Part shown: piece after piece, positions 3,059 through 20,257 of the stretch
Numbering within the stretch: the first letter of the stretch is position 1
Layout: each line of letters opens with the position of its first letter
DNA from: Anaerolineales bacterium
GTDB lineage: Bacteria; Chloroflexota; Anaerolineae; Anaerolineales; Villigracilaceae
Assembly (NCBI GenBank): GCA_046328915.1
Contig: JAXLVR010000007.1
Span: 157,206-221,205, forward strand
Direction: 5' to 3'
Length of the DNA stretch: 64,000 nucleotides
Program-made: the position numbers and the translations under genes
Notes under the pieces: model-generated
The model's input: the letters and a program-made list of their open reading frames with translations, nothing else
Database searches by the model: none
Told to the model about the DNA's origin: nothing

Positions 3059-3442
3059 ATGCCTACTTATGACTTTATCTGCAATACTTGCAAAGAGCGT
3101 TTTGATGTCTTTTTAACCTATAACGAGTATGGGAAGGTGACTGTTCACTGCACGCATTGTAATAGTGCAGATGTACGTCGCCGGATGACGAAGGTCCGTA
3201 TTGCGCGGACGGACGAAGGCAGGCTTGAGCATATGGCAGGCGAGCTCGGCAGCTTGGAAGGGATGGAAGAGGACCCTGCCGCATTTGGACGTATGATGAA
3301 AAAGATGGGGAGAGAAATGGGTGAAGACTTACCAGCCGAATTTGATGAGGTGGTGGACAGGCTGGAAGCCGGGCAAAGCCCGGAAGAGATCGAATCAGCC
3401 TTGCCAGACCTCAGTGGGGATGATGAGCTTTCTAAGGAATAG
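3059..3442 (+). CDS. FmdB-family zinc-ribbon protein
   Basis: N-terminal CxxC...CxxC zinc ribbon (MPTYDFICNTCKERF...HCTHCNS) typical of FmdB/CxxC_CxxC_SSSS proteins, followed by an acidic tail. Confidence 0.65.
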   Translation: MPTYDFICNTCKERFDVFLTYNEYGKVTVHCTHCNSADVRRRMTKVRIARTDEGRLEHMAGELGSLEGMEEDPAAFGRMMKKMGREMGEDLPAEFDEVVDRLEAGQSPEEIESALPDLSGDDELSKE

Positions 3443-3486: not shown

Positions 3487-3502
3487 TGTGACTTTTGTCA
3501 CA
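3487..3502. promoter_or_regulatory. Perfect CRP/FNR-type palindrome TGTGA-N6-TCACA upstream of the decaheme cytochrome gene
   Basis: The 16-nt sequence tgtgacttttgtcaca lies about 165 nt upstream of the ATG at 3666, inside an AT-rich promoter region. Confidence 0.4.
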
Positions 3503-3665
3503 TTAAGGGATGCTTATTTTTACTGTGCATTAATCTCCCACTTAAGTAAAATTTCTCATATCTGCTAAAAAATGTCAAAGCAGTCATTTTCTCCAAAGGA
3601 GGCATATTTTCAAGAACACGCCGATAATTACTAGCTTTTTTACACTGATCTAAGGAGAATGAATA

Positions 3666-5783
3666 ATGAGTCTCAAAAAATTTCTAGTTTTGCTCGGGGT
3701 TTTGGTTGTGCTTGGCGCGGTTTTAGCGGCCTGTGGCGGCACCCAACCCACTCAAACAGGTACTGAAACAGCCACGGAAGAAGCTCCCGCTGCTCCAATA
3801 CCAGACACCCCATATTTAGCTGATTGGCAAGGCTCCGCTCATGCAAATGTAGCCGACGAACCTTTCCGTCACTGGGATGACGCTGCCGAAAATCCTGATG
3901 GCGTCCCCACCACTTGTGCCAAGTGCCATACTACAGATGGTTACCGCGATTACCTCGGTGCCGATGGCTCTGAAGCCGGTAAAGTGGATGTAGCCGTTGC
4001 TGCCGACCATGCCCAAGGCGTGCAGTGCGTGGCTTGTCACAATGCTGTCACTATGACCAAGACCACGGTCGTATTCCCCTCCGGTGTTGAGATCAAAGCC
4101 GGTGATGACACCCGTTGTATGGAATGTCATCAGGGACGTGAGTCCAAGGTTAGCGTGGATGCGCAGATTGAAAAGTTTGCTGCCACCGATCCCGATGCCG
4201 TTGTTGCTCCGATCAAGGATGACCAGGGCAAGGATGTGTTCTTTGGTTTCCGCAATGTTCACTACTATGCTGCAGCCGCCACCCTCTACGGTGGTATGGT
4301 TCACGGCGGTTATGAATATGATGGCTTGACCTATGATGCCAAGAACACTCACACGGATGGCTATGACTCCTGCACAGGCTGTCATGATCCTCATACCCTC
4401 GAAGTCAAAGTTGACCAGTGCGCTTTCTGTCACGAAGATGTAGCCACCGTGGAAGATCTCAAGAACATCCGCATGGTTTCGTCCGCTCCTGACTACGATG
4501 GCGATGGCAATGTTGAAGAAGGTATGTACTACGAGATCCAGGGACTGCAGGAAGTCCTCATGGCTCAGATCCAGAAGTACGCTTTGGAAACTGCCGGCGC
4601 AGAGATCAAGTACGATCCTGAAACCTACCCATACTTCATGGGCGCAGATGGCAAGAACTACGCCAACTGGACTCCTCGTTTGCTGAAGGCTGCTTACAAC
4701 TATCAGGTCTCCATCAAGGATCCTGGTGCGTTTGCCCACGGCAATAAGTACATCGTCCAATTGCTCTTCGATTCGATCGCCGACCTCGGTGGCGATACCA
4801 GCAAACTTGCTCGTACCGATGCGGGTCACTTCGCTGGTAACACCGAACCCTTCCGACACTGGGACAAGGATGCCGATGGCAACCCTGTCTACGAAGTGGA
4901 AGCCGCTTGTGCCAAGTGCCATAGCGCTGCCGGTCTGCCGCAATTCCTCCAGTACGGTGCCAACCTGCCCGTGGAATCTGCAAATGGCTTTATGTGCTCT
5001 ACTTGTCACGACGAAGCTAACTGGCCCAACCGCTACACGGTCGCTTCTGTGACCTTCCCCAGCGGCTCAACCGTCAGCTTTGGTGGTAAAGATGCCGATG
5101 GCAACTTCGTTGCTGACGACTCCAACCTTTGTATCGAATGTCATCAGGGTCGCTCTTCTACACCGACCTTGAACAAGGCGCTCACTGGTAAGGAAGAAGA
5201 CACTCCTGATCCAAAGATCCGCTTCAACAACATTCACTACTTCGCTGCGGGCGCTACCATTTTCGGTGCTGACGTCCAGGGCGCATACATGTACGAAGGT
5301 ATGGAATATGTAGGTCAGAACATGCACGCTGACGAAGCTGGCAAGATGAATAAATGCCAGGATTGTCACGATGTCCATGCTCTCGAACCCAAGGTTGAAG
5401 CTTGCGAAACCTGTCACGATACTACCGACCCAACAGCAGTCCGCGAAAGCGATGTGGACTATGATGGCGACGGCGATGTGACCGAAGGTATCAAGGGCGA
5501 GATCGACACCATGACCGAAGCCCTCTATGCTGCGATCCAATCGTATGCTGAAAGCCACGGCGGAGCGATCTCCTACGACCCGAATGTGTACCCGTACTTC
5601 TCCGGTGCGGATGGCAAGGCATATGCAGCGTGGACTCCTCGCTTGCTCAAGGCTGCCTTCAACTACCAGTACGTCCAGAAAGACCCGGGTGCGTACGTTC
5701 ACAATCCCAAGTTCGTCATGCAGTTCCTGTATGACTCCACAAAAGACTTGGGTGGTGATGTGAGCAAGTTCACACGCCCGTAA
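3666..5783 (+). CDS. Decaheme c-type cytochrome lipoprotein (two tandem pentaheme modules)
   Basis: Signal peptide with lipobox LAAC. Ten CxxCH motifs arranged 5+5, with clear internal duplication of the two halves. RBS aaggagaa lies upstream. Confidence 0.85.
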   Translation: MSLKKFLVLLGVLVVLGAVLAACGGTQPTQTGTETATEEAPAAPIPDTPYLADWQGSAHANVADEPFRHWDDAAENPDGVPTTCAKCHTTDGYRDYLGADGSEAGKVDVAVAADHAQGVQCVACHNAVTMTKTTVVFPSGVEIKAGDDTRCMECHQGRESKVSVDAQIEKFAATDPDAVVAPIKDDQGKDVFFGFRNVHYYAAAATLYGGMVHGGYEYDGLTYDAKNTHTDGYDSCTGCHDPHTLEVKVDQCAFCHEDVATVEDLKNIRMVSSAPDYDGDGNVEEGMYYEIQGLQEVLMAQIQKYALETAGAEIKYDPETYPYFMGADGKNYANWTPRLLKAAYNYQVSIKDPGAFAHGNKYIVQLLFDSIADLGGDTSKLARTDAGHFAGNTEPFRHWDKDADGNPVYEVEAACAKCHSAAGLPQFLQYGANLPVESANGFMCSTCHDEANWPNRYTVASVTFPSGSTVSFGGKDADGNFVADDSNLCIECHQGRSSTPTLNKALTGKEEDTPDPKIRFNNIHYFAAGATIFGADVQGAYMYEGMEYVGQNMHADEAGKMNKCQDCHDVHALEPKVEACETCHDTTDPTAVRESDVDYDGDGDVTEGIKGEIDTMTEALYAAIQSYAESHGGAISYDPNVYPYFSGADGKAYAAWTPRLLKAAFNYQYVQKDPGAYVHNPKFVMQFLYDSTKDLGGDVSKFTRP

Positions 5784-5795
5784 GTTTTACGAAAT

Positions 5796-5834
5796 AAAAA
5801 ATGGCGGATGGCAACATCCGCCATTTTCTTTTTA
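5796..5834 (+). terminator. Rho-independent terminator after the decaheme gene
   Basis: Hairpin aatggcggatg/atccgccatt followed by a T-run. Confidence 0.5.
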
Positions 5835-5973
5835 ATCCAATTCTTAATCACACCAAAACCATGATATTTAGCACTGTAATGGGTCGCCTGCCCCACTTAC
5901 AATTGGGGCAATTCCCCCATGCTTGTAATTGGGAATATAATATGTAAATTGTCCGAATTTTATAAAGGAGAAT

Positions 5974-7143
5974 GTGATGCACCAAAGGATCAAACTTCGC
6001 ACGCCTCACATCTGGACCGTGAGCCTGCTTCTCGGACTTGGGCTTTTCGCCTTCGCTCTGGCAGCACTCACCACAACCGCACAAGCTGCCCCCTCCCTAC
6101 AGCCCACAGCACAGGACCAAAAACCCAATAACGATTTTTGTCTTGCCTGTCACCAAGAGGAAGGCATCGACAAAACCCTTGGCAGCGAATCGCTCCCAGT
6201 AACCATTAATCCCACTGAATTTGGTTTATCGGTTCACGCTGAAGAAGGCGTTCTCTGTGTAGATTGTCACGTAGATATCAGTGACTATCCCCACCCAGAC
6301 GTAAAATCAAAATCTGTTCGCGATTTTCAAATGACCTTCGCCGACTCCTGCAAGGAATGTCACGAAGAACAGTTCACCGATGCGCATGATAGTGTTCATC
6401 AAACCGCAATGGATGAAGGCGACCCGAACGCACCGCTTTGTTCTGATTGCCATAACCCCCACACTCAGGGACGTATCATTGGCGAAACCAGCGGCGAGCT
6501 GACCATTGCCGCCCGCAAAGAAGTGCCTGCTACTTGTGCCAAATGCCATACCGAAACGGTTGAGATTTACAAGAACAGTGTTCACGGCGGCGCCCTTGCA
6601 GATGGCAACACCGATGTGCCTACTTGTACAGATTGTCACGGTGTGCATAACATCGGTGACCCCACCACGAACGCTTTCCACAACAACACCCCTGCTTTGT
6701 GCGCAGATTGTCACGATAACGAAGAGTTGATGGGCAAATACGGTCTTTCTACCGAAGTGCTCGAAACCTACGTGGCTGATTTCCACGGCACCACCACAAC
6801 ACTCTTTGAACAGCAATTCCCCGGTCAACCTATTAACACGGCTGTTTGTACAGACTGCCACGGCGTTCATGATATTGCCAGCACCAAAAACCCAGAGACC
6901 GGTATTGCCATGCAAGAAAACCTGCTGGTTAAATGTCAGCGCTGCCATCCCGATGCCACAGCCAACTTCTCAGCCGCATGGATGGGACACTACCAACCCA
7001 GCCCTGAACATTACCCGATCGTCTATTACGTCAACCTTTTCTATAAATTCTTCATTCCCGCGGTCCTGGGCGGCATGGTGCTCTTTATCCTCACCGACAT
7101 CTATCGCCGCATTATCAACCGCGCGAAAGGAGCAAAGCACTAA
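5974..7143 (+). CDS. Nonaheme c-type cytochrome, C-terminally membrane anchored
   Basis: N-terminal signal peptide, nine CxxCH motifs, and a C-terminal TM helix. Upstream promoter-like element ttgtaa...tataat. Confidence 0.85.
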   Translation: MMHQRIKLRTPHIWTVSLLLGLGLFAFALAALTTTAQAAPSLQPTAQDQKPNNDFCLACHQEEGIDKTLGSESLPVTINPTEFGLSVHAEEGVLCVDCHVDISDYPHPDVKSKSVRDFQMTFADSCKECHEEQFTDAHDSVHQTAMDEGDPNAPLCSDCHNPHTQGRIIGETSGELTIAARKEVPATCAKCHTETVEIYKNSVHGGALADGNTDVPTCTDCHGVHNIGDPTTNAFHNNTPALCADCHDNEELMGKYGLSTEVLETYVADFHGTTTTLFEQQFPGQPINTAVCTDCHGVHDIASTKNPETGIAMQENLLVKCQRCHPDATANFSAAWMGHYQPSPEHYPIVYYVNLFYKFFIPAVLGGMVLFILTDIYRRIINRAKGAKH

Positions 7144-7997
7144 TGAATACCGTAACCAAAGCTTACATGCGCTTCCCGATCGCGCGCCGTATTGAACATT
7201 GGGTGATGATGCTCTCATTCACCTTGCTAGGTCTTACTGGGCTTCCTCAGCGCTTTCCAGAGGCTGGGCTCTCCCAAGCCATTCTAGGCGTTCTGGGAGG
7301 CATTCAGGGCGTGCGTACCGTACATCATACTGCTGCCGTCGTCATGATGTTTGGCACTGCCTGGCATATCCTTGTGATGGGCTACAGCGTCTTCGTCTTG
7401 CGCGATAAGATGTCCATGCTGCCTACTTTGCAAGATGCCAAAGACGGTCTGCAAGCCTTGCTGTATAACATCGGTTTTGCCAAGACCTATCCGCAAATGG
7501 GACGCTACACCTTCGAAGAGAAAATGGAATATTGGGCATTCGTTTGGGGTGCCCTAGTGATGGGTGCTACCGGTTTTATGATGTGGAACCCCATTACCGC
7601 GACAAGATTCCTGCCGGGTGAGTTTGTGCCAGCTGCCAAAGCGGCTCATGGTAATGAAGCTGTGCTTGCCGTGCTTGCCATCATTATCTGGCATATGTAT
7701 GGTGTACATATCAAACGTTTCAACAAAGCCATGTTCAACGGCAAGATGACCGAAACAGACATGCTGCATGAACATCCGCTGGAATTGGCAGACATCAAAG
7801 CCGGGATCGCAGACCGCCGCCCCGATGCCGCGACTCTGCGCAAGCGTCAGATGATCTATTACCCCATCGCCGCTGTCTTAACGATAGGCATGCTCGGTGG
7901 AATATATGGCTTTATCAACGCCGAAGAAACCGCACTGACAACCATTCCGCCCATCGTGGAAACGGTCGAACCGCCAGCGGCAACTGTTCAACCATAG
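7143..7997 (+). CDS. b-type cytochrome membrane subunit (Ni/Fe-hydrogenase/FdnI-like cytochrome b family)
   Basis: 284 aa with 4-5 TM helices carrying conserved His residues. The start overlaps the stop of the nonaheme gene (taATGa), suggesting translational coupling. Confidence 0.7.
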   Translation: MNTVTKAYMRFPIARRIEHWVMMLSFTLLGLTGLPQRFPEAGLSQAILGVLGGIQGVRTVHHTAAVVMMFGTAWHILVMGYSVFVLRDKMSMLPTLQDAKDGLQALLYNIGFAKTYPQMGRYTFEEKMEYWAFVWGALVMGATGFMMWNPITATRFLPGEFVPAAKAAHGNEAVLAVLAIIIWHMYGVHIKRFNKAMFNGKMTETDMLHEHPLELADIKAGIADRRPDAATLRKRQMIYYPIAAVLTIGMLGGIYGFINAEETALTTIPPIVETVEPPAATVQP

Positions 7998-8004
7998 TAA
8001 CAAG

Positions 8005-8040
8005 AATAAAAAGAGCCGCCCTAGAGGCGGCTCTTTTTTG
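8005..8040. terminator. Bidirectional terminator between convergent cytochrome operons
   Basis: Hairpin aaaagagccgcc/ggcggctctttt flanked by A- and T-runs. Confidence 0.6.
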
Positions 8041-8055
8041 ATTCTGTACCGAATA

Positions 8056-9319
8056 TTAATCTCCTGCAACTGCTTCCCCAACTTTCATGGTTACAACTTC
8101 ATACTCTTCGCTCACGAGGCGATGATCCACAACCCGCAAGTATTTCACGCCCACCGAGAAAGCCAACAGACCGAAGGCAATGATGCCAAGCCCAGCTGCC
8201 CATTCCACTAGTGATGGGGTGTAACTGGTGTATTGTACGACCATTTCACCGGGGGTATACGGAATGACCGCAAGGAAACCGACGATGTTTGTATCGAAGC
8301 GGAAGGCAATCACGCCGCCGACGATCATTGCGAAGGCGAGCATCCGCCACAGCGGAGTCTGACGCAAGGAGCGCTTGAGCAGGATAATGGTAGGAAGAAG
8401 CGCGCCGAAGAGCATTTCGCCGAACCAGAAGTTGAAGGAGAGCGGTCCCTTGGTGAGGAGTCTGAATCCTTCGGTGCGTCCGGGTTCGTAGGTGTAGGTT
8501 TGGGCAAGCCAATCCCAGAAGCGCCAGTAGAGGTAGGCGATCATCATATAGCCGAGCACTTGCGCTACACGTTCGATCAAGGTGTCGTTGACTTTGGCTT
8601 TGGGGGTTAGCCGCGCCGCCAGCATGGATGCGAACAAGGTGAGCGAGATGCCGCCGAGAATGGCTGTGAACATGAACATCACAGACATTTCAGGGCGATA
8701 CCAAATTGGGCGCGCTTTGATAACACCATAGACCGCCCCCAGCGAAGATTGATGCAAACTGGAGAGAGCCAAGCCTAAGACGGCGAGCACAGGAGCGTAG
8801 TGATGCAAGTGTTCCATCTTTTCGGCGATCTTCGGATATTTCGTGCGCAGCCATTCAAAGGATGCAACGATGGGTGCCACTTCGAGAAGGAGTACGGTGA
8901 AGTATAGACCCACGCACATGGTCACTTCCCAAAGCAGAGAGTGGGTTCCAGAAGACAAAAGACTTCCAGAAGCGTTCAGGACGACCAATATCCAGCAAGA
9001 GCGCCATCATTGCCATGCTATAGCCCGTGAAGCCGATGAAGGTGGCGGTGCGGGCGATAGGCTCATAGCGTTTGAAGCCGAAGAGATACACGATCGCGCA
9101 TAAACTGAATGCGCCGGCTGCTACGGCAATGGAGGAGAGATCAATAGTGATCCACAAGCCCCAAGGAACGAGGTTTGTGAGATTGGTGATGACCAAGCCT
9201 TTCCAGAAGACGGTTAGCGCGGCAATTAAGGCGCTGACTAAAAGAAGCCCTAGAAAAGCGAGCCATGCACCCCAAGGGGTAAAGATATTTTCGCGAATGG
9301 TTTTTAGGATGGTTTTCAT
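8056..9319 (-). CDS. NrfD/PsrC-like polytopic quinol-interacting membrane subunit, interrupted by a frameshift near 8940-8990
   Basis: Two overlapping ORFs (8855..9319 and 8056..8988) together make up one NrfD-family protein. The frames switch inside a conserved loop: FWNP in one frame, HSLLWEV in the other. Confidence 0.75.
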
Positions 9320-9320
9320 G

Positions 9321-10097
9321 TCATCCCTCCACAGTAGTGTCTTCGTTTACGGGGAGGTAATAAACCCGCGGTTTGGTTCCAAGGTTTTCGCGCAAGCGAT
9401 AGGACGGGTGGTCTTGCAAAAGCTGGCTCACATTGGAATTCGGGTCGTTCAAGTCACCAAAGATGCGGGCGCCGGTTGGGCAAGCAACTACACAAGCAGG
9501 GGTGGCGGCGGGGTCTTCACCGGGTTTGAGTCCCAGCGAAAGTCCGCGATCGATGCGTTGATAGCAGAAAGCACACTTCTCTGGCACACCGCGCGGACGG
9601 CGTTCCACTTCTGGTTCGCCATATTGCGGCACGTATGGGTTCTCACCATCAAACTTTTCCCAGTTGAAGGAGCGGGCATCGTAGGGGCAGGCTACCATGC
9701 AATAACGGCAACCGATGCATTTTTCATAGTCCATCATTACGATGCCATCATCACGATAGTAGCTGGCGCCCACCGGGCAGACTTCCACACAGGGTGCGTG
9801 TTCGCATTGCATACATGGACGCGGCAGATACACTTGCTTGCCATTCATTTCGCCCATATCCAGAACCTTGGTCCATTCCATATCTGGGTTGATGTCGTTG
9901 GTGGCATGGCATGCCATATTGCATTGATTGCAGCCCGTGCACTTGGATTGGTCAATGACCATTACCCATTGATGTTCACCTTTTGCGCCTTCAGAGGCTT
10001 TCACTTCTTGCGTGAGGAGGCGTGTTCCGGCAGCGGCAGCAATGCCTACCGCAGAAAGTTTGATGAAATCACGGCGGTTGAACTTATTTTGAGCCAT
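9321..10097 (-). CDS. 4Fe-4S ferredoxin-type iron-sulfur subunit, NrfC/PsrB-like, Tat-exported
   Basis: Twin-arginine signal NRRDFIKL and four Cys clusters (CTGCNQC...C, CxxCxxC...CP). Confidence 0.85.
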   Translation of the reverse strand: MAQNKFNRRDFIKLSAVGIAAAAGTRLLTQEVKASEGAKGEHQWVMVIDQSKCTGCNQCNMACHATNDINPDMEWTKVLDMGEMNGKQVYLPRPCMQCEHAPCVEVCPVGASYYRDDGIVMMDYEKCIGCRYCMVACPYDARSFNWEKFDGENPYVPQYGEPEVERRPRGVPEKCAFCYQRIDRGLSLGLKPGEDPAATPACVVACPTGARIFGDLNDPNSNVSQLLQDHPSYRLRENLGTKPRVYYLPVNEDTTVEG

Positions 10098-11076
10098 GGT
10101 GTACCTCAGCAGATTTCTTCAATACGAGGCGGTATCCGCGTTCGAGCCAGGGAGCCAGCAACATACCAGCTGCGATACCGATCAGCGCTGTGATACCTGC
10201 ATACCCAAGTGGGGAAACCGGAGCAGGGTTCGGTGAAACGATGGGAGATTGATCTACGATTGCAGCGGCAGGTTTCGGGGTTTCTGTGGGGGCAACGTTC
10301 GCAACAATAGCTTGTTCCGTCGCATCTGCCTGACCATCTGTATGCATTTGATTGGCATGGCATGAGTTACACGTGGTAATGCTTGCCTTGAAAGAGTGAT
10401 CCGCTACCTGGTGAACCGCTGCGTTACTTTCCACATGCTCAAGGTGACAATCGATACAAGTGACGCCTTGTTTGCTATGCGTGGAATATGGGAAGTTCAT
10501 GCTGGCTTCTTCATGACAACTAATACATAGTTGAGAAGCATCTGCAACCTTTTGTTCCTTAAGGTTGACGGTGATTTTCAAGGAAGCATTGTGCGGGTCA
10601 TGACAGGTTGTGCAGTCCATGCCAGCGGCGAAGTGGGTGCTTTCTTCCCATTCTTTCATACCAAAACGAGCATCGGTATGGCAGGTGCCGCAGGTGCCGC
10701 CGGTCGCATCCACGCTCATGGTGGTTTTGGGGTGGTCACCACCATCATCTACATGACAGGCTGTGCAGTACACGCCGTCTTTTTCCCAGGTACCGGTGTT
10801 TTCGTCGTATCCTGTCACATGGCAGGCGAGACAAGCGCTCGGTTTGCCTTGGTCGGTCCAATCTTTAACGAAGATTGGGTCGCTGGTAGCGTTCCCATGC
10901 GGACCGTTCTTCCAACTCATTTCAAATTCTTCATGGCAGTCTGCGCAGGTTTTTTCTTCGTCTCCCGTGGGCGTAGGGGGATTGGCATCCTGTGCGGAGG
11001 CGGTAAGAATGGAAACACCTGCAATTAGCAGGGAGACCATAAGGGCGAGGATGATTTTTTCAAAACGTGAGAACAT
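10084..11076 (-). CDS. Octaheme c-type cytochrome with C-terminal TM anchor
   Basis: N-terminal signal peptide, eight CxxCH motifs, and a C-terminal hydrophobic helix. Overlaps the NrfC-like gene by 14 nt. Confidence 0.85.
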   Translation of the reverse strand: MFSRFEKIILALMVSLLIAGVSILTASAQDANPPTPTGDEEKTCADCHEEFEMSWKNGPHGNATSDPIFVKDWTDQGKPSACLACHVTGYDENTGTWEKDGVYCTACHVDDGGDHPKTTMSVDATGGTCGTCHTDARFGMKEWEESTHFAAGMDCTTCHDPHNASLKITVNLKEQKVADASQLCISCHEEASMNFPYSTHSKQGVTCIDCHLEHVESNAAVHQVADHSFKASITTCNSCHANQMHTDGQADATEQAIVANVAPTETPKPAAAIVDQSPIVSPNPAPVSPLGYAGITALIGIAAGMLLAPWLERGYRLVLKKSAEVHHGSK

Positions 11077-11111
11077 GAGTGCATCTCCTTATTAAGAGTG
11101 AAACGCAAGAG

Positions 11112-11456
11112 TTAAGCGTGAGCTTTCGATGGTTTTAGCACCGGTGTAGGTGCATTGATAAAGATTTCGCAACCAAGGCAGGCTTCACGCATATAGCCGT
11201 TTGAAAGGCGATGGATCTGCCAACAGGGTTTTCCGCTTTCGGCGGCACGAGCTTTAATATCGTCCATCGAAAGACCTTGTTCCTTCCAACAGGGTGTTTC
11301 ATCGCGCACCAGAAGGTTACGTTCGATCTCCGCTTCCTTCTGCCAGCGCACATCCAGGCGGCGTAAACCCATCACGATCAATGTGGTTACCAAAATAGGC
11401 AAACCCAATCGCACCGTAACACCCAGGATAAAAACGAGAATTGAATTAGTAGTCAT
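11112..11456 (-). CDS. Membrane-anchored Cys-rich hypothetical protein (4 Cys: CW...CW...CLGC)
   Basis: The likely start is MTTNS at 11456, with an N-terminal TM helix and a C-terminal Cys-rich domain. It lies directly upstream of the octaheme gene on the same strand. Confidence 0.45.
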   Translation of the reverse strand: MTTNSILVFILGVTVRLGLPILVTTLIVMGLRRLDVRWQKEAEIERNLLVRDETPCWKEQGLSMDDIKARAAESGKPCWQIHRLSNGYMREACLGCEIFINAPTPVLKPSKAHA

Positions 11457-11463
11457 GTCGACC

Positions 11464-11583
11464 TCACTTGAGCCAGTAGTTGGATTCTTTGCGGCGTAAC
11501 AACTCACCGAGTAGTAGAAGCGCTCCAAATGGGATGGCAACGCGGGCGATAAAGTACAGGATGAAAAACTCAGAACCGTTCAT
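11464..11583 (-). CDS. Small single-TM peptide (39 aa), possibly translationally coupled to the downstream Cys-rich protein
   Basis: Strong SD (gaaaggaga) 6 nt before the ATG, a hydrophobic core, and a stop 5 nt before the next ATG. It is missing from the ORF track because it is under 60 aa. Confidence 0.35.
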   Translation of the reverse strand: MNGSEFFILYFIARVAIPFGALLLLGELLRRKESNYWLK

Positions 11584-11811
11584 GACATTCTCCTTTCTCA
11601 AATCTACCTATAGGATATTGCTTCCTTAAAAGAAAGTAAATTCGTTACCAACCCCATTATTGGATGCGTACCTCCGCATCTTTTAGGACCCTTTGCCTGT
11701 GGCAAACGCCCCAAGCCTTACTAACGCTGTGGGGTATCTGCCCCATCTAAAAAACCACCTGTGTAAAGTAGATAAACTTACTCGCTTGACACTATTAAGC
11801 AACTCTTAAAC

Positions 11812-11845
11812 GAAAAGGCTCTCTTTTTAGAGAGCCTTTTCGTAA
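11812..11845 (-). terminator. Terminator after the response regulator gene
   Basis: Hairpin aaaaggctctct/agagagcctttt. It separates the two-component operon from the downstream cytochrome operon. Confidence 0.5.
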
Positions 11846-11866
11846 AACCTTTCATAACCCGTGATT

Positions 11867-12517
11867 CTATGCTTTTATGATCCCCTTACGAATGGCATAT
11901 CTCACTAATTCTGAGCGTGAGTGGAGATTTAACTTACGCATAATATTCTCACGGTGACGCTCCACCGTTTTGGGGCTAATCACAAGCGCATCGGCAATCT
12001 CTTGATTGCTGGCACCTTCTGCCAGCATTGTAAAGACCTCATGCTCGCGGTCGGTCAAACCGCCAAGATCGATCTTCTCTTCTGGCAAGCGGTCAATGTT
12101 TAGATAATCGCGCACCAACAGTTTCGCCATGGATGGGTAGAGATATACCTCCCCATTGGCAGCGGCGCGAATGGCAGTGATCAATTCTTCAGGTGCGGCG
12201 CGTTTGGGCACATAGCCTGAAGCACCTGCATTCAACATTTGGAAGAAATATTCTTCGTCTTCATGAATGGTCAACGCCACAATGTTCACATTCGCAAATT
12301 TTGCCTTGATCTCGCGTGTGGCTTCAATACCGGTCTTATCGGGCAGACCGATATCCATCAGAATCACGGTTGGTTGTACGCGTTCTGTCTCTGCCAAGGC
12401 TTCTGCTGCAGACCCCGCCTCACCTACAATTTCAAGGTCTTCTTGCCCGTTGAGCAGCATCTTCAACCCTGTTCGGACGACCGCATGGTCATCCACCAAT
12501 AACAATCGAATCGTCAT
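11867..12517 (-). CDS. Response regulator, NarL/FixJ family (REC + LuxR-type HTH)
   Basis: N-terminal LLVDDHAVVRTGL receiver domain and a C-terminal LuxR HTH. Confidence 0.9.
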   Translation of the reverse strand: MTIRLLLVDDHAVVRTGLKMLLNGQEDLEIVGEAGSAAEALAETERVQPTVILMDIGLPDKTGIEATREIKAKFANVNIVALTIHEDEEYFFQMLNAGASGYVPKRAAPEELITAIRAAANGEVYLYPSMAKLLVRDYLNIDRLPEEKIDLGGLTDREHEVFTMLAEGASNQEIADALVISPKTVERHRENIMRKLNLHSRSELVRYAIRKGIIKA

Positions 12518-13995
12518 TTCTCCTCCTGATCTTTCAAATGCAATGGCACTACAGCCTCAACTTCCGTCCCATACCCTGGGCGTGAGGAGATGGTCACACC
12601 GCCGCCGAGCAATGCTGCACGTTCTTCCATGCCTGCCAAACCCAAAGAGACGCGCCCAATGCGGTTTTGTACATCTTTCATCTCAAACCCCACCCCATTA
12701 TCAAACACATGAATGCGAACTTCCTTTTGTAAATAATGGATCTTGACGTTAACCGTGGTGGCTTGGGCATGTTTGATAACGTTATTCAATGCTTCTTGCG
12801 TAATGCGGAAGATGGTGATCTTCACGGCATCGTCGAGCGTGGGTTCGTCGCCGTCGATATCCACGCGCACATGCAGGGAGGTCAACTCATGGATGCGCGA
12901 AGCGTACCACCTCAACGTGGCGGAAAGGCCCAGGTCGTCGAGGTGCGCAGGCCTGAGGTCCGAGATGATGCGTTGCAATTCATGGATGGACTCTGAGGTA
13001 AGAGATTGCAATTGAGTCAGAGTGGTGAGACGTTTTTTAGAGTCAGTCTCGTTTGCAAGCCCGCGTAAACCCATGCCAATGGCAGTTAATGACTGGCCAG
13101 TTTCATCATGAAGATCGCGTGCAATGCGCTGACGTTCAGACTCTTGTGCACCAACAATGCGGCGAAAAAGTTGGGCGCGTAGTTTTTCGCGCTGCTGTGA
13201 TTCGTGCAACTGTGACGCTTGTAGTTCTGCAATCTTGCTGTCGCTTTCTACTTGAAAGGCACGTAAAAAGCGTGTGACAAATAAAGAAGCGAACATGGCA
13301 GTGATTGCGCGTAGTAATTGAATGGAAAAACCAAAGGTGTTTAGGAAAAGCTCAGCGTTAAGAAATGTGGATGGAGGTAAGGGACTTGGCTCTGTAAAAA
13401 GTTGACCGACAAGGCTATACCAAATGAATGCGACCGATGCCCACAAACTGTCGCGCCCAAAACTTACCAAACCTGCTCTACGAAAAGCCCGTTGTTGGAC
13501 TACCAAGCCTGCGGCTGCAAGCAAACCTGCTGGAATGGCAATGGAGTACCGCGTCCACACATCGGCAACGGCATAAATATTATCCAGAGGATATTTGCTT
13601 TTGAAAATCAGTAGTCCATAAACCCAGATGGCTTCGAGCCCTAGCGGGATGATGAGACTCACTCTCCAGGTCGATTCACTGCCAAGCACGAGATACGAAC
13701 CGAATGCCGCTAAAGATAAAAATGAAAAAGCCAAAATGGATAACGCCAGCAGTGGATAAATACCTTCGAGAAAGGCATTTAAGTGCCCCATAGCTCTGAA
13801 CATTTCCAACCATTCATGGGCAGCATGTACAAGACCAAAGCCTGCCAGCGGACGTAGTGCCATGCGCAAGCGTGCATCTGTAGAGCGTCCTCCTTCCATG
13901 GCAACCAATAAGCCCATGCTAAAGAAGGCAAGCCCATAAAAGAAATAGATGACTACAACAGATAGATTTTCCATGCTTACATAAAAAGACCCCAA
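12514..13995 (-). CDS. Sensor histidine kinase, HisKA_3 family, with a polytopic membrane sensor domain
   Basis: About six N-terminal TM helices, a coiled coil, the H-box RIARDLHDETGQSL, and an HATPase_c domain. Overlaps the response regulator by 4 nt. Confidence 0.85.
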   Translation of the reverse strand: MGSFYVSMENLSVVVIYFFYGLAFFSMGLLVAMEGGRSTDARLRMALRPLAGFGLVHAAHEWLEMFRAMGHLNAFLEGIYPLLALSILAFSFLSLAAFGSYLVLGSESTWRVSLIIPLGLEAIWVYGLLIFKSKYPLDNIYAVADVWTRYSIAIPAGLLAAAGLVVQQRAFRRAGLVSFGRDSLWASVAFIWYSLVGQLFTEPSPLPPSTFLNAELFLNTFGFSIQLLRAITAMFASLFVTRFLRAFQVESDSKIAELQASQLHESQQREKLRAQLFRRIVGAQESERQRIARDLHDETGQSLTAIGMGLRGLANETDSKKRLTTLTQLQSLTSESIHELQRIISDLRPAHLDDLGLSATLRWYASRIHELTSLHVRVDIDGDEPTLDDAVKITIFRITQEALNNVIKHAQATTVNVKIHYLQKEVRIHVFDNGVGFEMKDVQNRIGRVSLGLAGMEERAALLGGGVTISSRPGYGTEVEAVVPLHLKDQEEK

Positions 13996-14028
13996 AGGCG
14001 CTTTGTTCGCCTTTAGGGTCTCTCCTCG

Positions 14029-14921
14029 TTATGCGTCTTCGTGCCTTAGCCGTGCGCCACACGTTCGGCAGAACCTGTCACTGGGTTTGGCGCGTGCTCC
14101 ACATTGTGGACAGTAGAGGCTGGTGGCATCACTTTCTGCATTGGTTCGTGAACGGCGGCGATGTTTATTACCGCCTGCAGAATGGCGACCCCATTGGAAG
14201 TAATACATCAAGCCACCGGCAATCATAATGATGCCAAGTCCGCCAATGATGTAGGGCAGGCTATTGGCAAGTGAAACACGCCCAGGTGTATCTTCATTCA
14301 CTGGCTCGGCAATCTGCACCGACTGCGCCTGCGAGACCAGTGTATCAGTGGTCTTTGTGTAGCTTACATTCAGGGAATACTGTTCACCCGCCGCAAGTTG
14401 GACGGGCGCTCCATCGTAGTAGTTCAAGCCGTTAAAGGTTTCTTTGGCGGTATATTTCGGATCAATGGCGATATCAGTTACATTCAATGGTTCCAGAAAA
14501 AGATATTGGAACTTCTCAACCGCATATTCACTATCCCAAAGATAAGAGAAAATGCGCGTATCGCCGTTGTACGAAAGCGGTTGATAATATTCGAAACGGT
14601 ATGGGGAATTCTGTTCAATGACCATGCTGAAGGTTTGGTATTCCCCTTCAGGGTTGGGACCCGTATATGGGTGATCGAGGAATTGTCCGTTACCCGTATC
14701 TGAAGCGACAGCAATCAAATTCGCTTCAGCAGGAATGCGAAAGGTAAGTGTGGCGGGCAAAGCGGTAGTTGCCGCAACTTGAAAATCTACGATCACCAGC
14801 ATGCTGGGGTCGTCATATTCAGCCATAATTGTACAGTTGCAAATGAAAGCGACACATCGCTTTGAGCCGATGCGGAGATGGGGAACGAGAGGAAGATTCC
14901 CATAAGAAGGAGTAAGAGTAG
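14029..14921 (-). CDS. Secreted-domain/TM/cytoplasmic zinc-ribbon protein, apparently frameshifted after its signal peptide
   Basis: SD plus ATG at 14921 encode the signal peptide MRKLLLLLLMGIFLSFPISASA in one frame. The long ORF, in the +1 frame, carries an extracellular domain, a TM helix and a C-terminal CPQCG...CRTCG zinc ribbon. Confidence 0.45.
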
Positions 14922-15078
14922 TTTGCGCATGAACGCCTCCTAACGATAAATGTTTTACTTCTCTATGTATCTTACCATGCCACATTTTTTGAGGGCATAA
15001 ACGAAATCATGCAGAATATAGATAAATGTCACCCTTTTTAGAAATGTACAACTGGGGCGGGGTACCCGCCCCAGCAAA

Positions 15079-15975
15079 TTACATTGCTCTTACCAATTGC
15101 CAGCACGAACGATTGTAGGGCGTGCTAATTCCGTGCATTTCACCGTATTCGGTGACCGCGCCACAGATCGAGTCAATTTCCGTTGGGGCACCGCGGCGCA
15201 CATCCTGAAACATCGACGAAAGATTTTGCGCCGTTTTGCGCGCCACTTCTTCCACGGCTTCGATCGGGTTTGTGAACGGCAAATTTACCTGCTCTGCTTG
15301 TGCTACTTCGGCAGCTTCACGCGCCAGCGCATTCATCGCCTTGCGTGCCCAGGGATGATTCAACAACTCACCGTTTGGTACTTGCAGCAGCGCAGTCAGC
15401 GGGTTGATGGCGGCATTGATGATGAGCTTACCCCACACCAACGATTGCGCATTTTGAACAATCTGCAAATTAAAGTTGGATGACCGAAGAGCCGCCTCTA
15501 GCGGACCGAGAGCCTGATTCTGTTCCAGAGAGAGGATACCCTCACCGCCAACTTTTACATGCCCGGGTCCGAGCAGCGTGGCTCCAGTGGTGGTAACGCC
15601 CAGGGCAACGCGCCCAGCCCCAAGGTCCCGTGCGAGCGCTTCGCGATTGCCGAGTCCATTTTGAAGGGTGAGCACAATTCCATCTGGAGCAAGAATCCCT
15701 TTTAGCTTTTCTGCCACGCGTTTCGTCTGCCATGATTTCACCAACACAATAGCGTGCTTAACATTACGCACTTCACTGGGTTCATCCGTAGCATGGACTT
15801 GAAAAGCTCGTTCTTTTCCATTTGATTCTGAAACACGGGCACCGTTTTGGTTAAGAGCATGAATGCCGTCTTTCCACGTACCCAACATGGATATATGATG
15901 ACCTGCTTCACTCAAGCGTGCCGCAAATAGCGTAGAGAGTGCGCCTGTACCAATTAGTAAAATGTTCTCGCTCAT
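15079..15975 (-). CDS. panE: 2-dehydropantoate 2-reductase
   Basis: Rossmann motif ILLIGTGALS and an ApbA/PanE fold. Its ATG overlaps the panB stop (ATGA). Confidence 0.8.
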   Translation of the reverse strand: MSENILLIGTGALSTLFAARLSEAGHHISMLGTWKDGIHALNQNGARVSESNGKERAFQVHATDEPSEVRNVKHAIVLVKSWQTKRVAEKLKGILAPDGIVLTLQNGLGNREALARDLGAGRVALGVTTTGATLLGPGHVKVGGEGILSLEQNQALGPLEAALRSSNFNLQIVQNAQSLVWGKLIINAAINPLTALLQVPNGELLNHPWARKAMNALAREAAEVAQAEQVNLPFTNPIEAVEEVARKTAQNLSSMFQDVRRGAPTEIDSICGAVTEYGEMHGISTPYNRSCWQLVRAM

Positions 15976-16823
15976 TTCACTTCCTTTTGAAAAACAGCCC
16001 ATTCTTCGTCTGTCATTTCAACGGTATGTTCGGCAGCCGGGAATTGCTTGGCATTTACATCGTTGAGATATTCTGTAAAAGCTTTATTCATCGTCTCATG
16101 CAGGTTTGCATATTGGCGAACGAATTTCGGTGTGAAGCGTTCAAAGAGACCCAGTAAATCGTGAGTGACAAGCACTTGCCCGTCGCAACCTGATCCCGCG
16201 CCAATGCCAATGGTTGGAATGGAGATATGCTTGGAAATATACTCTGCCAGCCTTGCAGGAACAGACTCCAGCACAAGGCTGAACGCCCCAGCTTCTTCAA
16301 GAATCTGCGCATCTTCAAGCAATCGTTTGGCTGCCGAAGCAGTTTTGCCCTGTGCACGGAACCCGCCGAGTTGATTCACTGATTGTGGTGTGAGCCCTAG
16401 ATGCCCCATCACAGGAATGCCTGCATTGACAATGGCTCGTACTGCATCAGCACGTTCACGCCCACCTTCAAGCTTGACCGCATCCATTCCGCCTTGTTGC
16501 AAGAAGCGCCCGGCATTGCGCACGGCATCTTCTACTGAAACTTGATACGACATAAATGGCATATCGCCAACGAGCAATGGGGCTTTGGCTCCGCGTGCCA
16601 CGGCTCGGGCATGGTGCAACATTTCATCCATGGTGACGGGTAAGGTGTTTTCGTAGCCGAGCACTACCATCGCAAGTGAATCGCCCACTAGAATGGAATC
16701 AATTCCGGCTTTGTCTATCGCCATTGCTGTGGGATAGTCGTATGCCGTTAACATCGTAATCGGCTCGCCGCGTTCTTTCTTTTGCCTGAACGTGAGAGTC
16801 GTCACTTTTTTACGTTGTGACAT
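15972..16823 (-). CDS. panB: 3-methyl-2-oxobutanoate hydroxymethyltransferase
   Basis: Conserved PanB core (LTAYDYPTA...GDSLAMVVLGY...GDMPFMSY). The start was chosen at MSQRKK; the ORF track extends further upstream. Confidence 0.85.
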   Translation of the reverse strand: MSQRKKVTTLTFRQKKERGEPITMLTAYDYPTAMAIDKAGIDSILVGDSLAMVVLGYENTLPVTMDEMLHHARAVARGAKAPLLVGDMPFMSYQVSVEDAVRNAGRFLQQGGMDAVKLEGGRERADAVRAIVNAGIPVMGHLGLTPQSVNQLGGFRAQGKTASAAKRLLEDAQILEEAGAFSLVLESVPARLAEYISKHISIPTIGIGAGSGCDGQVLVTHDLLGLFERFTPKFVRQYANLHETMNKAFTEYLNDVNAKQFPAAEHTVEMTDEEWAVFQKEVK

Positions 16824-17039
16824 GGTGGTAGAAACTGTAGTTGTTGACAAAGGTACCCTCCGATAAAGGTAGAGTCCGCATTGGTGTGCTAGCACCCTAT
16901 TCTGCACACATTTTCGGTCGATTTGGATTTTTCCGTCGCGTTCATAAGGATACACGCGGTAAAGCTATTATGACATATTCCAGTCTGCTTGCCTATAATA
17001 AATGTATCAGAACTTTGTCTCAAAAACTATCAGAAGTGC

Positions 17040-17911
17040 TTAACCGCGCAGGTGCTTTTCAAATTTCCCGAAATCGACTCGGGCGGTCATATCGAGGTCA
17101 ATGGGGGTGACGGCAACTTTCTTTTTGTGCCGTAGAACATACACGTCGGTCCCTTCTTTCTCGTGAGGGAGGTTGTTGTCGTGTGTGTACCCAATGGGGC
17201 CAGGTTCATCCCATGAGGCGCGTTTGGATGGGGTGGGAACGTAGTAGCGGAGGCGTGAAAGTTTTGAGATTTCCCACTCAGTCTCCGGCGTGGCGTGACG
17301 CGGCACTTCCACTTTCAGAACATCTACTCCGTCGAAGTGTTTCTTGTCTAATAAAATGCGGGCGAAGTAGGCAGTGAAATATCCGGCAACTGTAAAATCA
17401 ATATCTTCAGAATGGCTGAGGTGATAGTGTGGATCAGTTTCCAGCGAGATCGCTAAAGCAGGGATACCAAGATTGGCGCCTTCCATGGCGGCTCCTACGG
17501 TGCCAGAGATGGTGATTCCCAGCCCAACATTTTCTCCGTAGTTGATTCCTGAAACGATCAGGTCTGGTTTGTGAGGGACGATTTCTAAAACACCGTGTAA
17601 GACTGCTTGAGCGGGTGAACCGCCCACAGCGTAGACATCCCATTCCTGCCCATTGATTTGACCTTTTCTTTGTGAATGATGCCGTCAGAGGTACTTGGCA
17701 GGCTGCGTCCCATACCGCTGGATTGATTACGCGGCGCGGCAACGGTGACATAACCAATCTTGGCGAGTTCACTGGCGGCTGCCCATAAGCCTGGCGAGCG
17801 GATACCATCGTCATTTGTGAGCAGGATGTGCGGTTTTTTCTTTGTCATGGTCTGGGGATTATAAACAAAAGAAGACGGTTTTGCGGTGCCGAACCAAGAG
17901 ATTTTGCACAC
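17040..17911 (-). CDS. surE: 5'/3'-nucleotidase SurE, interrupted by a frameshift at an A/T homopolymer (~17657)
   Basis: The N-terminal ORF (LLTNDDGI motif) and the C-terminal ORF are in different frames. A single extra A in the aaa run would restore KVKINGQEW.... Confidence 0.8.
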
Positions 17912-17960
17912 GGATTACACGGGCAAATTCGGAATTTCTTAAGAGGTTTTTCCGTGTACT

Positions 17961-18012
17961 AAAAAAACGAGTAACCACCTCTCTCACGAAAGGTGGTTAC
18001 TGTGCTCCCGGC
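17961..18012 (-). terminator. Rho-independent terminator (10-bp perfect stem) on the minus strand
   Basis: Stem gtaaccacct/aggtggttac followed by a T-run on the minus strand. Confidence 0.5.
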
Positions 18013-18088
18013 AGGACTCGAATATCATCCCTCGATGGGGCGTGCGACCTAATAAAAAAACTACCTTTCAAAAAGGCAGTTTTTTCTG

Positions 18089-18162
18089 TGCTCCCGGCAG
18101 GACTCGAACCTGCGACCTATTGCTCCGCAAGCAAGCGCTCTAATCCACTGAGCTACGGAAGC
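18089..18162 (-). tRNA. tRNA, probably Arg; the anticodon reads GCG in my fold (unusual; has a C27-U43 mismatch)
   Basis: Cloverleaf folded by hand: 7-bp acceptor stem, D-arm gctc/gagc with G18G19 and A20, T-arm gcagg-ttcgagt-cctgc, anticodon loop ttGCGga. The isotype needs tRNAscan-SE. Confidence 0.6.
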
Positions 18163-18259
18163 GTTCATTTGTTAAGCGGGCAGTATTTTACTGCATTGTA
18201 TTCTGAAGGTCAAGGTGCTTGACGGCATGCCCCCCTGCATGTAAAATCAGCGTCGCCTT

Positions 18260-18332
18260 GCGGGAGTCGCCAAGTGGTAAGGCATCAGCCTTCCAAGCTG
18301 ACATTTCGTGGGTTCGAATCCCATCTCCCGCT
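18260..18332 (+). tRNA. tRNA-Gly (anticodon TCC)
   Basis: Acceptor gcgggag/ctcccgc, 3-bp D-stem, anticodon stem tcagc/gctga with loop ctTCCaa, and T-loop ttcgaat. Confidence 0.85.
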
Positions 18333-18409
18333 CTGACGTTCGGTGTCAAGTGTCAGGTTCCAAGTGTCACGTGACACTCCCGCACTTGGCACCTGATACT
18401 TTAAGCCAC

Positions 18410-18482
18410 GGGCTCGTGGCGCAGCGGTTAGCGCAGGGAACTCATAATTCCTTGGTCGTAGGTTCGAATCCTACCGGGCCCA
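18410..18482 (+). tRNA. tRNA with CAT anticodon (elongator Met or Ile2-lysidine type)
   Basis: Acceptor gggctcg/cgggccc, D-arm gcgc-agcggtta-gcgc, anticodon loop ctCATaa, T-arm gtagg-ttcgaat-cctac. No GGG:CCC initiator signature at anticodon-stem positions 29-31. Confidence 0.8.
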
Positions 18483-18516
18483 CCTTCAATTTACGATTTT
18501 TGATTGTGGATTTACA

Positions 18517-18552
18517 AAAGCGGACGGCTCATTGCCGTCCGCTTTTTATTTT
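18517..18552. terminator. Bidirectional terminator between tRNA-Met and the IMPase gene
   Basis: Hairpin gcggacggc/gccgtccgc followed by a T-run. Confidence 0.55.
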
Positions 18553-20221: not shown

Positions 20222-20257
20222 GAAAATTCTCCTAAACTAAAATGGATTTGAGAAATT

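Follow-up and report, generated by a model that had tools for sequence, protein, structure and literature searches.

Background

Chains of multiheme c-type cytochromes that lead from quinol to the cell surface are known from bacteria without an outer membrane. Structures are available for two extracellular electron transfer (EET) cytochromes of such one-membrane bacteria, OcwA from the outer cell wall of Thermincola potens (PDB 6I5B) and OmhA from the S-layer of Carboxydothermus ferrireducens (PDB 6QVM), and the logic of the chain has been worked out for both genera (PMC6703420, PMC7829351). For Anaerolineae, rich in multiheme cytochromes, the same logic has been put forward in outline (10.1101/2021.08.23.457424), and one Chloroflexota isolate has been shown to respire electrodes, by a different 7-heme protein (PMC5808234). 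Here we describe a cluster of multiheme cytochrome and quinone-module genes, with a ten-heme lipoprotein (the decaheme) as its presumed last step, in 64,000 nucleotides of an Anaerolineales assembly (GCA_046328915.1, contig JAXLVR010000007.1, positions 157,206 to 221,205; this whole stretch is referred to as the window and supplies our coordinates).

Two described architectures are of particular relevance. OcwA and OmhA fall in one fold group with NrfA, of which Soares et al. list members with four, five, eight, nine and eleven hemes, and both retain penta-coordinate hemes together with a non-bonding histidine (PMC9250108). In CbcL, a diheme cytochrome b is fused to a nine-heme cytochrome c, and the protein has been described as a quinol oxidase (10.1101/2021.04.15.440034).

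On balance we consider it probable that the region encodes a conduit that carries electrons from quinol to the cell surface, a one-membrane solution like that of OcwA. Gene content, cofactor motifs, topology signals, fold similarity and conserved synteny are observed, and from these we infer the acceptor, the direction of electron flow, the contacts between partners and the regulation. New are the decaheme family with its two-NrfA-module architecture, the pairing of this family with two quinone modules in Anaerolineales, and its MtrAB-type neighbours in Aminicenantes. In the searchable literature on Villigracilis, Anaerolineae multiheme cytochromes, Chloroflexota decahemes and Aminicenantes Mtr systems we found no description of the cluster, only broad remarks on the abundance of multiheme cytochromes in Anaerolineae; this agrees with an earlier reading of the same DNA, made from the letters alone (the sequence-only reading), that such a system was uncharacterised in this context.

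A decaheme with two predicted NrfA-type modules

We found that the two halves of the decaheme are 42% identical to each other (E 7e-75), and the protein is therefore a tandem duplication of a pentaheme module of approximately 330 residues. All ten CxxCH motifs are present in 132 of 136 relatives. Across 137 family members the ten motifs are conserved, as are five further histidines in module 1 (positions 59, 199, 229, 243 and 358) and five in module 2 (388, 524, 554, 571 and 679), two of the latter being displaced by 1-3 columns in the sister clade described below. An AlphaFold2 model built on 64 homologs (mean predicted local distance difference test score, pLDDT, 82.5; predicted template modelling score 0.76) has the attributes of an NrfA-type C-terminal module, namely five hemes in order and then long C-terminal helices, and each half is closed by a three-helix element. 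The top match of this model in Foldseek was OcwA (E 0.02, probability 0.98), with NrfA enzymes next. Sequence searches of the PDB returned nothing meaningful, whether the query was the single decaheme sequence or a profile of 64 sequences; fold comparison alone worked. On the evidence of the model, the decaheme consists of two NrfA-type pentaheme modules in tandem and belongs, at fold level, to the homologous group of NrfA, ONR, HAO, MccA, OcwA and OmhA. A tandem of two NrfA modules is not among the architectures listed for that group (PMC9250108).

Traces of this relationship can be seen in the sequence. A local hhalign alignment, itself weak, placed hemes 1-3 of the module on hemes 1-3 of E. 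coli NrfA; a global comparison of the module profile with the same protein gave no alignment. The decaheme and E. coli NrfA have in common a histidine seven residues before heme 4 and an arginine 16 residues before heme 1, the latter being Arg106 of NrfA, within ETLRTG. NrfA has five non-motif histidines, as does each decaheme module; in NrfA four of them are distal ligands and the fifth is the non-bonding catalytic His264. His199 and His524 of the decaheme, each within an invariant N-[VI]-H-Y, occupy the sequence position equivalent to His264, although the number of histidines also allows coordination of all hemes by two histidines. After heme 3, CH-QGR is invariant in the decaheme family, at a site that reads CH-VEY in E. 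coli NrfA, and Arg68 is not conserved in the Aminicenantes clade.

Two established families were considered for the decaheme and rejected. Neither TIGR03507 nor the MtrC-MtrF domain II/IV model matched it at E <= 0.01, and it lacks the four-domain MtrC/OmcA fold of two split beta-barrels and two pentaheme domains; PF22113 entries, precomputed, are on record for some of its homologs. Nor does it belong to the NrfA enzyme family proper, as it has no CxxCK and is not matched by PF02335 or TIGR03152. The sequence-only reading had taken the decaheme for a surface protein and suggested a comparison with MtrC/OmcA; the decaheme is not of that type. The reading had also argued against a soluble-substrate reductase from the lack of both a molybdopterin and an NrfA-like subunit: there is indeed no molybdopterin subunit in the region, but with a decaheme that is NrfA-like in its fold the second half of the argument falls. 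The same reading had stated that it would be refuted by heme motifs not conserved in homologs; the motifs are conserved in the decaheme and, as shown below, in the nonaheme cytochrome.

The decaheme gene is preceded by a ribosome-binding site, AAGGAG, and the signal peptide ends in a lipobox, LAAC, with Cys23 as the lipid-anchor residue. From this cysteine a linker rich in T, P, E and A (residues 23-47) extends, which is disordered in the model (pLDDT <50). The lipobox cysteine is kept in 60 of 63 Anaerolineales-type homologs, versus three of 74 homologs from Aminicenantes.

A HMMER search with one module over 1.84 billion representatives recovered 1,179 clusters at E <= 1e-3, of which 303 were at E <= 1e-30. 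Many of these are tandems, and there are also single-module pentaheme proteins of 355-390 residues, such as the lipoprotein P0334. One protein of 1284 residues and 15 hemes (P0241) carries three pentaheme modules behind a lipobox and three N-terminal immunoglobulin-like repeats, a combination typical of surface proteins, which suggests an architecture for display at the cell surface. Two larger proteins (P0315, 1203 residues; P0373, 1439 residues) bear a single pentaheme module at the C-terminus; one of these fusions is chemoreceptor-like, with a HAMP and a methyl-accepting domain and an extra CxxCH in its sensor part, and the other is a large ATPase/TPR/solute-binding-like protein. The pentaheme module may thus also have a role in redox sensing. 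A metagenome protein collection contained over 5,400 relatives of the decaheme. Among the matches listed, 120 named relatives were annotated as hypothetical protein or, once each, as cytochrome c3 family protein, cytochrome c553 and C-type polyheme cytochrome OmcB.

Two quinone modules beside the decaheme

The first module consists of a nonaheme cytochrome c and a cytochrome b. In the nonaheme, all nine CxxCH motifs (9/9) and eight further histidines are conserved in homologs, and transmembrane (TM) segments are predicted at residues 13-31 and 355-373; its counterpart in a related locus (L157) is a called gene of 388 residues. The stop codon of the nonaheme gene overlaps the start codon of the cytochrome b gene (TAATG), and from this overlap translation of the two is predicted to be coupled. 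Six histidines of the cytochrome b are conserved (19, 61, 75, 169, 184 and 211). The pair therefore has the composition of CbcL, an FdnI/HydC-class cytochrome b and a nine-heme cytochrome c, by way of two coupled genes; the Aminicenantes relative of the pair is a single fused protein.

The second module lies on the minus strand and comprises an NrfD-like membrane subunit, an NrfC-like ferredoxin-like subunit and an octaheme cytochrome. The NrfC-like protein has 16 conserved cysteines, enough for four [4Fe-4S] clusters. It scored 225.2 bits against the NCBIfam model for DsrO (cut-off 200), 192 bits against that for QrcC and 152.8 bits against that for NrfC (TIGR03149, cut-off 377.6), so that it is not an NrfC equivalog; the DsrP model scored 24 and 53 bits (cut-off 350). 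By these model scores, the NrfC- and NrfD-like subunits appear to be family-level relatives of the Nrf subunits, not orthologs. The octaheme matches an NrfB-like Pfam model and NCBIfam pentaheme-subunit models and has a predicted C-terminal TM segment at residues 290-308; its gene overlaps the nrfC-like gene by 14 nt.

Other complexes with NrfD-type subunits were tried for this module. DsrMKJOP was rejected because the DsrO model alone passes and genes for DsrM, DsrK and DsrJ are absent from the cluster, the DsrO match being cross-family. Qrc was rejected because its partner subunits are missing and scores lie below the cut-offs. Alternative complex III (ActABCDEF) was rejected as well: the FeS protein, of 258 residues, lacks a molybdopterin-like domain, only one NrfD-like gene is present, and the cytochrome has eight hemes.

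The nrfD-like gene is interrupted in the window. A 2-bp deletion at approximately 8944/8943 splits it into overlapping open reading frames (ORFs), 9319-8855 and 8988-8056. The deletion falls in a short CA repeat, at which the window reads CCCAC and relatives read CCCACAC; the site is GGAACCCACTCT in the window and GGAACCCACACTCT in L160, a contig with 98.9% nucleotide identity over 2.6 kb. Three related loci (L001, L011 and L160) read through the site, intact NrfD-like ORFs of 420-430 residues occur in L001, L011, L009, L059 and L002, and in L157 the ORF has 421 residues. Restoring two nucleotides to the window gene likewise gives 421 residues, a length found in relatives. About 9 kb away surE (17040-17911, minus strand) is also frameshifted, with ORF 17911-17585 covering positions 1-53 of the SurE model and ORF 17627-17040 covering positions 68-185. 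Because the nrfD-like gene is intact in all relatives and surE nearby shows the same kind of defect, an assembly indel error is probably the cause, rather than a real pseudogene.

Two small genes begin the minus-strand operon. The peptide of 39 residues is conserved in 19 loci. The protein of 114 residues is conserved in 22, with Cys56, Cys78, Cys93 and Cys96 invariant, and its soluble part is predicted to be cytoplasmic. Small genes of this kind also precede multiheme genes in other layouts, for example at L027 15519-15842.

Every redox protein of the region has an export signal and is anchored by lipid or a TM segment, in keeping with a single-membrane cell. Neither the MtrA/DmsE-type decaheme nor the MtrB/PioB barrel occurred in the window or in any Anaerolineales locus; both were seen only beside the Aminicenantes homologs.

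Host and conservation of linkage

The source of the window is a member of the Anaerolineales closely related to Candidatus Villigracilis. Its nearest genomes, Anaerolineales assembled from metagenomes, include several Candidatus Villigracilis species from activated sludge and bins from anammox reactors, groundwater and sediment.

We surveyed linkage by tblastn of all window proteins against 76 genome loci and found three layouts. The whole arrangement of the window is kept in approximately 20 Anaerolineales genomes. In approximately 15 genomes the decaheme is directly followed on the same strand by a different 7-heme cytochrome, an NrfC that is 52-55% identical, and NrfD. In several others the NrfD-NrfC-octaheme operon and the two small genes lie directly upstream of the decaheme, with the regulator pair downstream. 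The regulator pair is syntenic with the NrfCD-octaheme module in all layouts, and the zinc-ribbon membrane protein is found next to the kinase in approximately 12 related loci. The decaheme thus occurs repeatedly beside one or other quinone-interacting module, which is good evidence for shared function; the linkage of the modules is not accidental.

Two Villigracilis-type loci, L027 (15846-21616) and L034, carry the decaheme-adjacent 7-heme/NrfC/NrfD module. A few kb further on, the same genomes have extra 9-heme cytochromes, a nonaheme and cytochrome b pair, and a 7-heme protein of 582 residues. These extra modules indicate that the cluster is modular and expandable.

A sister clade in Aminicenantes

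A decaheme homolog of 38% identity was found in a locus of a second lineage (L072), within a cluster spanning 7175-20501 of that locus. The genes lie in the order DmsE/MtrA-type decaheme (E 9e-47), heme-less protein of 619 residues, decaheme homolog, HAO-like octaheme, ResB, CcsB and 17-heme NapC-like protein, with an 11-heme cytochrome fused to an FdnI-type cytochrome b on the opposite strand. A metagenome scan for this cluster recovered 80 loci (L077-L156), and the order MtrA-like protein, barrel, decaheme homolog is kept in approximately 60 of them, at 44-100% identity. Homologs of the 619-residue protein match PF11854 (MtrB_PioB) and outer-membrane barrel domains, and one, from Candidatus Aminicenantales, bears the name MtrB/PioB family outer membrane beta-barrel protein. 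Since MtrA-like and MtrB/PioB-like genes adjoin it, the decaheme family is linked to an electron conduit across the outer membrane in a lineage with two membranes. The Aminicenantes cluster pairs its porin-cytochrome with an HAO/HDH-like octaheme, and the fusion of 11-heme cytochrome and FdnI-type cytochrome b occurs in some loci.

Gene content and surroundings

Features of the cluster are listed in Table 1. The gene content proposed by the sequence-only reading was largely borne out. Its count of ten, nine and eight CxxCH motifs holds in three ORFs; the joint translation of nonaheme and cytochrome b is supported by the TAATG overlap and by PF01292 and FdnI model matches; domain matches confirm the regulator/HisKA_3 kinase pair and the zinc-ribbon membrane protein upstream; and the small TM peptide and the Cys-rich membrane protein are real, conserved genes, called in L157. 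For the minus-strand set, the Tat-exported NrfC, the octaheme with its TM anchor and PF03916 stand, with the reservation that the NrfD gene is broken by the 2-bp deletion. A strong terminator separates the decaheme gene from the nonaheme and cytochrome b operon, because of which the decaheme is probably a transcription unit of its own.

Table 1. Genes and other features of the cluster, in window coordinates (Tat, twin-arginine translocation)
Feature	Position	Strand	Basis and remarks
Decaheme c-type cytochrome lipoprotein, 705 residues	3666..5783	+	10 CxxCH; tandem of two ~330-residue pentaheme modules with predicted NrfA/OcwA-like fold
Intrinsic-terminator-like hairpin right after decaheme gene	5798..5827	+	13-bp stem, 6 G-C pairs, T tract
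Nonaheme cytochrome c, 389-residue ORF	5974..7143	+	9 CxxCH; N-terminal signal, C-terminal TM anchor; probable start ATG at 5977
FdnI/HydC-type cytochrome b membrane subunit, 284 residues	7143..7997	+	PF01292 E 2e-14; FdnI models
Palindromic hairpin between convergent operons, bidirectional terminator candidate	8008..8038	.	14-bp stem between A and T tracts
NrfD-like integral membrane quinol/quinone subunit, interrupted	8056..9319	-	PF03916 on both fragments; best NCBIfam model QrcD
Tat-exported NrfC/DsrO/QrcC-type ferredoxin-like subunit, 258 residues	9321..10097	-	TAT_signal and Fer4_11; four [4Fe-4S] motifs
Octaheme cytochrome c, 330 residues, NrfB/DmsE-like packing	10084..11076	-	8 CxxCH; signal peptide; C-terminal TM anchor
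Membrane protein, 114 residues, one N-terminal TM segment, four conserved Cys	11112..11456	-	No Pfam match; gene called in L157
Single-TM peptide, 39 residues, first gene of minus-strand operon	11464..11583	-	ORF; gene called in L157
NarL/LuxR-family response regulator	11867..12517	-	Response_reg and GerE
HisKA_3 sensor kinase, multi-TM N-terminal sensor region	12514..13995	-	HisKA_3 and HATPase_c; predicted TM segments
Membrane protein with C-terminal zinc ribbon	14029..14985	-	Zn_Ribbon_1; weaker linkage

The flanking genes are housekeeping genes (Opp permease, rhomboid, guanylate kinase, panE, panB, surE and tRNAs). An Rfam scan of the window returned three tRNAs only, all outside the region; these lie at 18089-18482, on both strands, just past surE. 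Sites resembling promoters occurred no more often than they did in shuffled sequence and were not used as evidence. Directly upstream of the decaheme is a gene for an FmdB-type protein of 127 residues (Zn_ribbon_8; 3059-3442, plus strand), whose position, together with guanylate kinase and the rhomboid protease, is kept in most Anaerolineales loci; its adjacency to the decaheme may reflect a mere conserved chromosomal neighbourhood.

Function of the cluster

In the conduit that we favour, all redox parts would sit on the outer face of a single cytoplasmic membrane. Menaquinol would be oxidised by the FdnI-type dihaem cytochrome b with the C-terminally anchored nonaheme, a two-gene form of CbcL, and also by the heme-less NrfD with the Tat-exported NrfC, carrying four [4Fe-4S] clusters, and the anchored octaheme. 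Both modules would hand electrons to the decaheme lipoprotein on its flexible linker of approximately 25 residues, which would act as terminal reductase for acceptors unable to enter the cell, such as Fe(III) and Mn(IV) minerals, humics, flavins, electrodes or partner cells, with a possible side activity on small N-oxides. The HisKA_3/NarL pair would switch the minus-strand operon on. We favour the conduit over the soluble-substrate reductase considered below because the NrfA signatures are missing, OcwA ranked first among structural matches, and the sister clade has an MtrAB context. A Cbc-like conduit to an external acceptor had been proposed in the sequence-only reading; two quinone modules beside a tethered decaheme, and OcwA as its closest solved structure, sustain this proposal in part.

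Several points weigh against the conduit. Hemes 1 and 6 may be open catalytic sites, judging from the position of His199 and His524. The decaheme, with its own terminator, is probably transcriptionally separate, and the nrfD-like gene is frameshifted in the window sequence. The Aminicenantes homologs have no lipobox, so that they could be external like MtrC or periplasmic like MtoD, and they are followed by an HAO-like octaheme. No named cultured isolate is represented among the 76 genome loci, and electroactivity of these bacteria was not documented in the searched literature.

The strongest rival, which we regard as rather unlikely, is an NrfABCD-like respiratory reductase of a soluble small molecule (nitrite, hydroxylamine, NO or a sulfur oxyanion). 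Here NrfD and NrfC would oxidise menaquinol, the octaheme would serve as NrfB, the decaheme would be a double NrfA-type enzyme with open hemes 1 and 6, and the nonaheme and cytochrome b would provide a second quinol entry point. The weak local alignment of hemes 1-3, the shared histidine and arginine spacings and the five conserved non-motif histidines per module are all consistent with such an enzyme; however, the decaheme has neither CxxCK nor a match to either NrfA model, the Tyr216/Glu215 and Lys261/Gln263 calcium-site motifs of NrfA are replaced by the invariant CH-QGR and N-[VI]-H-Y, Arg68 is lost in the Aminicenantes clade, and the ten conserved extra histidines suffice for all-bis-His coordination. 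Also in its favour are the matches of the octaheme to NrfB models, the presence of NrfC and NrfD, and the habitat of the hosts in nitrogen-removal plants and anammox reactors, while the sister clade is located in an MtrA/MtrB cluster. All members of the fold group, including OcwA, reduce nitrite or NO in vitro (PMC9250108, PMC6703420), but OcwA, the best structural match, is an EET protein with a nitrite kcat of only 1 per minute. By analogy with OcwA, which does both, nitrite slowly, conduit and N-oxide reductase would not be mutually exclusive. A related and still tentative possibility, about which we are doubtful, is that the decaheme represents an unrecognised class of terminal oxidoreductase with two NrfA-type modules, each with an open-site heme, which would carry out the final step of EET in both lineages, lipid-anchored and fed directly by quinol dehydrogenases in single-membrane Chloroflexota and coupled to MtrAB in double-membrane Aminicenantes, where it would replace MtrC.

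Electrons might also flow inward, from Fe(II), reduced humics, a cathode or a partner cell through the decaheme to the nonaheme and cytochrome b and on to menaquinone, with the NrfCD module leading to another acceptor; we hold this to be improbable. The route from nonaheme and FdnI-type cytochrome b to menaquinone would be as in the redox loop of formate dehydrogenase-N (Fdn-N), in which FdnI-type cytochromes b work as quinone reductases, and the best NCBIfam match of the NrfD/NrfC parts is Qrc, which reduces menaquinone. Two different quinone modules beside one cytochrome would suit two directions, although nothing in the sequence fixes the direction and the window has no linked genes for carbon fixation or a terminal oxidase. 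Ardenticatena maritima, a filamentous Chloroflexota isolate, performs both anodic and cathodic EET (PMC5808234), and MtoAB/PioAB-type clusters serve Fe(II) oxidation (PMC7005843); CbcL, however, which comes nearest in architecture, has been described as oxidising quinol (10.1101/2021.04.15.440034). Finally, the 2-bp deletion that splits the nrfD-like gene could mean that the minus-strand module is a decaying pseudogene cluster in this genome and that the plus-strand genes alone are functional. This is very improbable, as the deletion lies in a short CA repeat and is read through in the 98.9%-identical contig, the other operon genes are all intact, the NrfC protein is identical to that of other assemblies, and the frameshift in the housekeeping gene surE, 9 kb off, points to assembly indels.

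Implications

Among the filamentous bacteria of activated sludge and anammox reactors, Candidatus Villigracilis and its Anaerolineales relatives rank with the commonest; because no isolates exist, little is known of how they respire. If the conduit is real, these Anaerolineales would be capable of anaerobic respiration on iron, humics or partner cells, with a bearing on iron-dosed plants, sludge conductivity and interactions with anammox bacteria. If the class with two open sites is real, the reduction of minerals and N-oxides by one protein could link the cycles of iron and nitrogen in bacteria that abound in wastewater and sediment. With regard to cytochrome evolution, the two-module decaheme would add an architecture to its fold group, of which single-module, triple-module and sensor-fused relatives exist, and the occurrence of the family beside MtrAB-type genes in Aminicenantes suggests that terminal EET cytochromes may be exchangeable across cell envelopes. 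Surveys of iron-reduction genes that are limited to known families such as MtrC or OmcS (e.g. FeGenie, PMC7005843) would probably miss the decaheme family.

Comparison with known systems

The decaheme resembles OcwA and OmhA in having an NrfA-type pentaheme module followed by a helical bundle, in having CxxCH in all heme motifs, in its extracytoplasmic location in a host without an outer membrane, and in a conserved histidine at the position of the non-bonding distal histidine. It differs in that no similarity to them is detectable at sequence level, even by profile, and in its composition: OcwA is a c554-type tetraheme with one NrfA-type module (nine hemes) and OmhA has two hemes more, whereas the decaheme has two NrfA-type modules (ten hemes). 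OcwA and OmhA are bound to the wall or S-layer; the decaheme is lipid-anchored.

With E. coli NrfABCD the region shares the pentaheme fold, colinear hemes 1-3, an NrfB-like carrier, a Tat-exported NrfC with four clusters and a heme-less NrfD. Unlike in NrfABCD, there is no CxxCK, the calcium-site and Tyr motifs are not kept, the pentaheme module occurs twice, the carrier is an octaheme with a TM anchor, the NrfC and NrfD model scores fall far under the cut-offs, and the genes form two convergent operons with an additional nonaheme and cytochrome b pair. The multiheme complexes Qrc, Hmc, Nhc, Ohc and DsrMKJOP likewise combine an NrfD-type subunit, an NrfC-type FeS subunit and a multiheme cytochrome c, and the best NCBIfam models here are QrcD, QrcC and DsrO; the region differs from Qrc, Hmc and DsrMKJOP in lacking QrcB, the cytoplasmic HmcEF or DsrK, and DsrMJP.

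The Cbc clusters of Geobacter sulfurreducens (CbcL/Cbc1, Cbc4 and CbcSTU), which feed EET, provide a parallel in that a second cluster of multiheme cytochrome, FeS protein and NrfD is present. Unlike in CbcL, with which the comparison is one of architecture, cytochromes b and c are separate coupled genes here, and there are no periplasmic shuttles or outer-membrane conduit. MtrCAB and other porin-cytochrome systems of Shewanella and Geobacter share with the region a ten-heme lipoprotein of approximately 700 residues as the presumed last step, and the Aminicenantes homolog directly follows mtrA-like and mtrB/pioB-like genes; the decaheme, in contrast to MtrC, has no beta-barrel domains, and the Anaerolineales cluster has neither porin nor MtrA.

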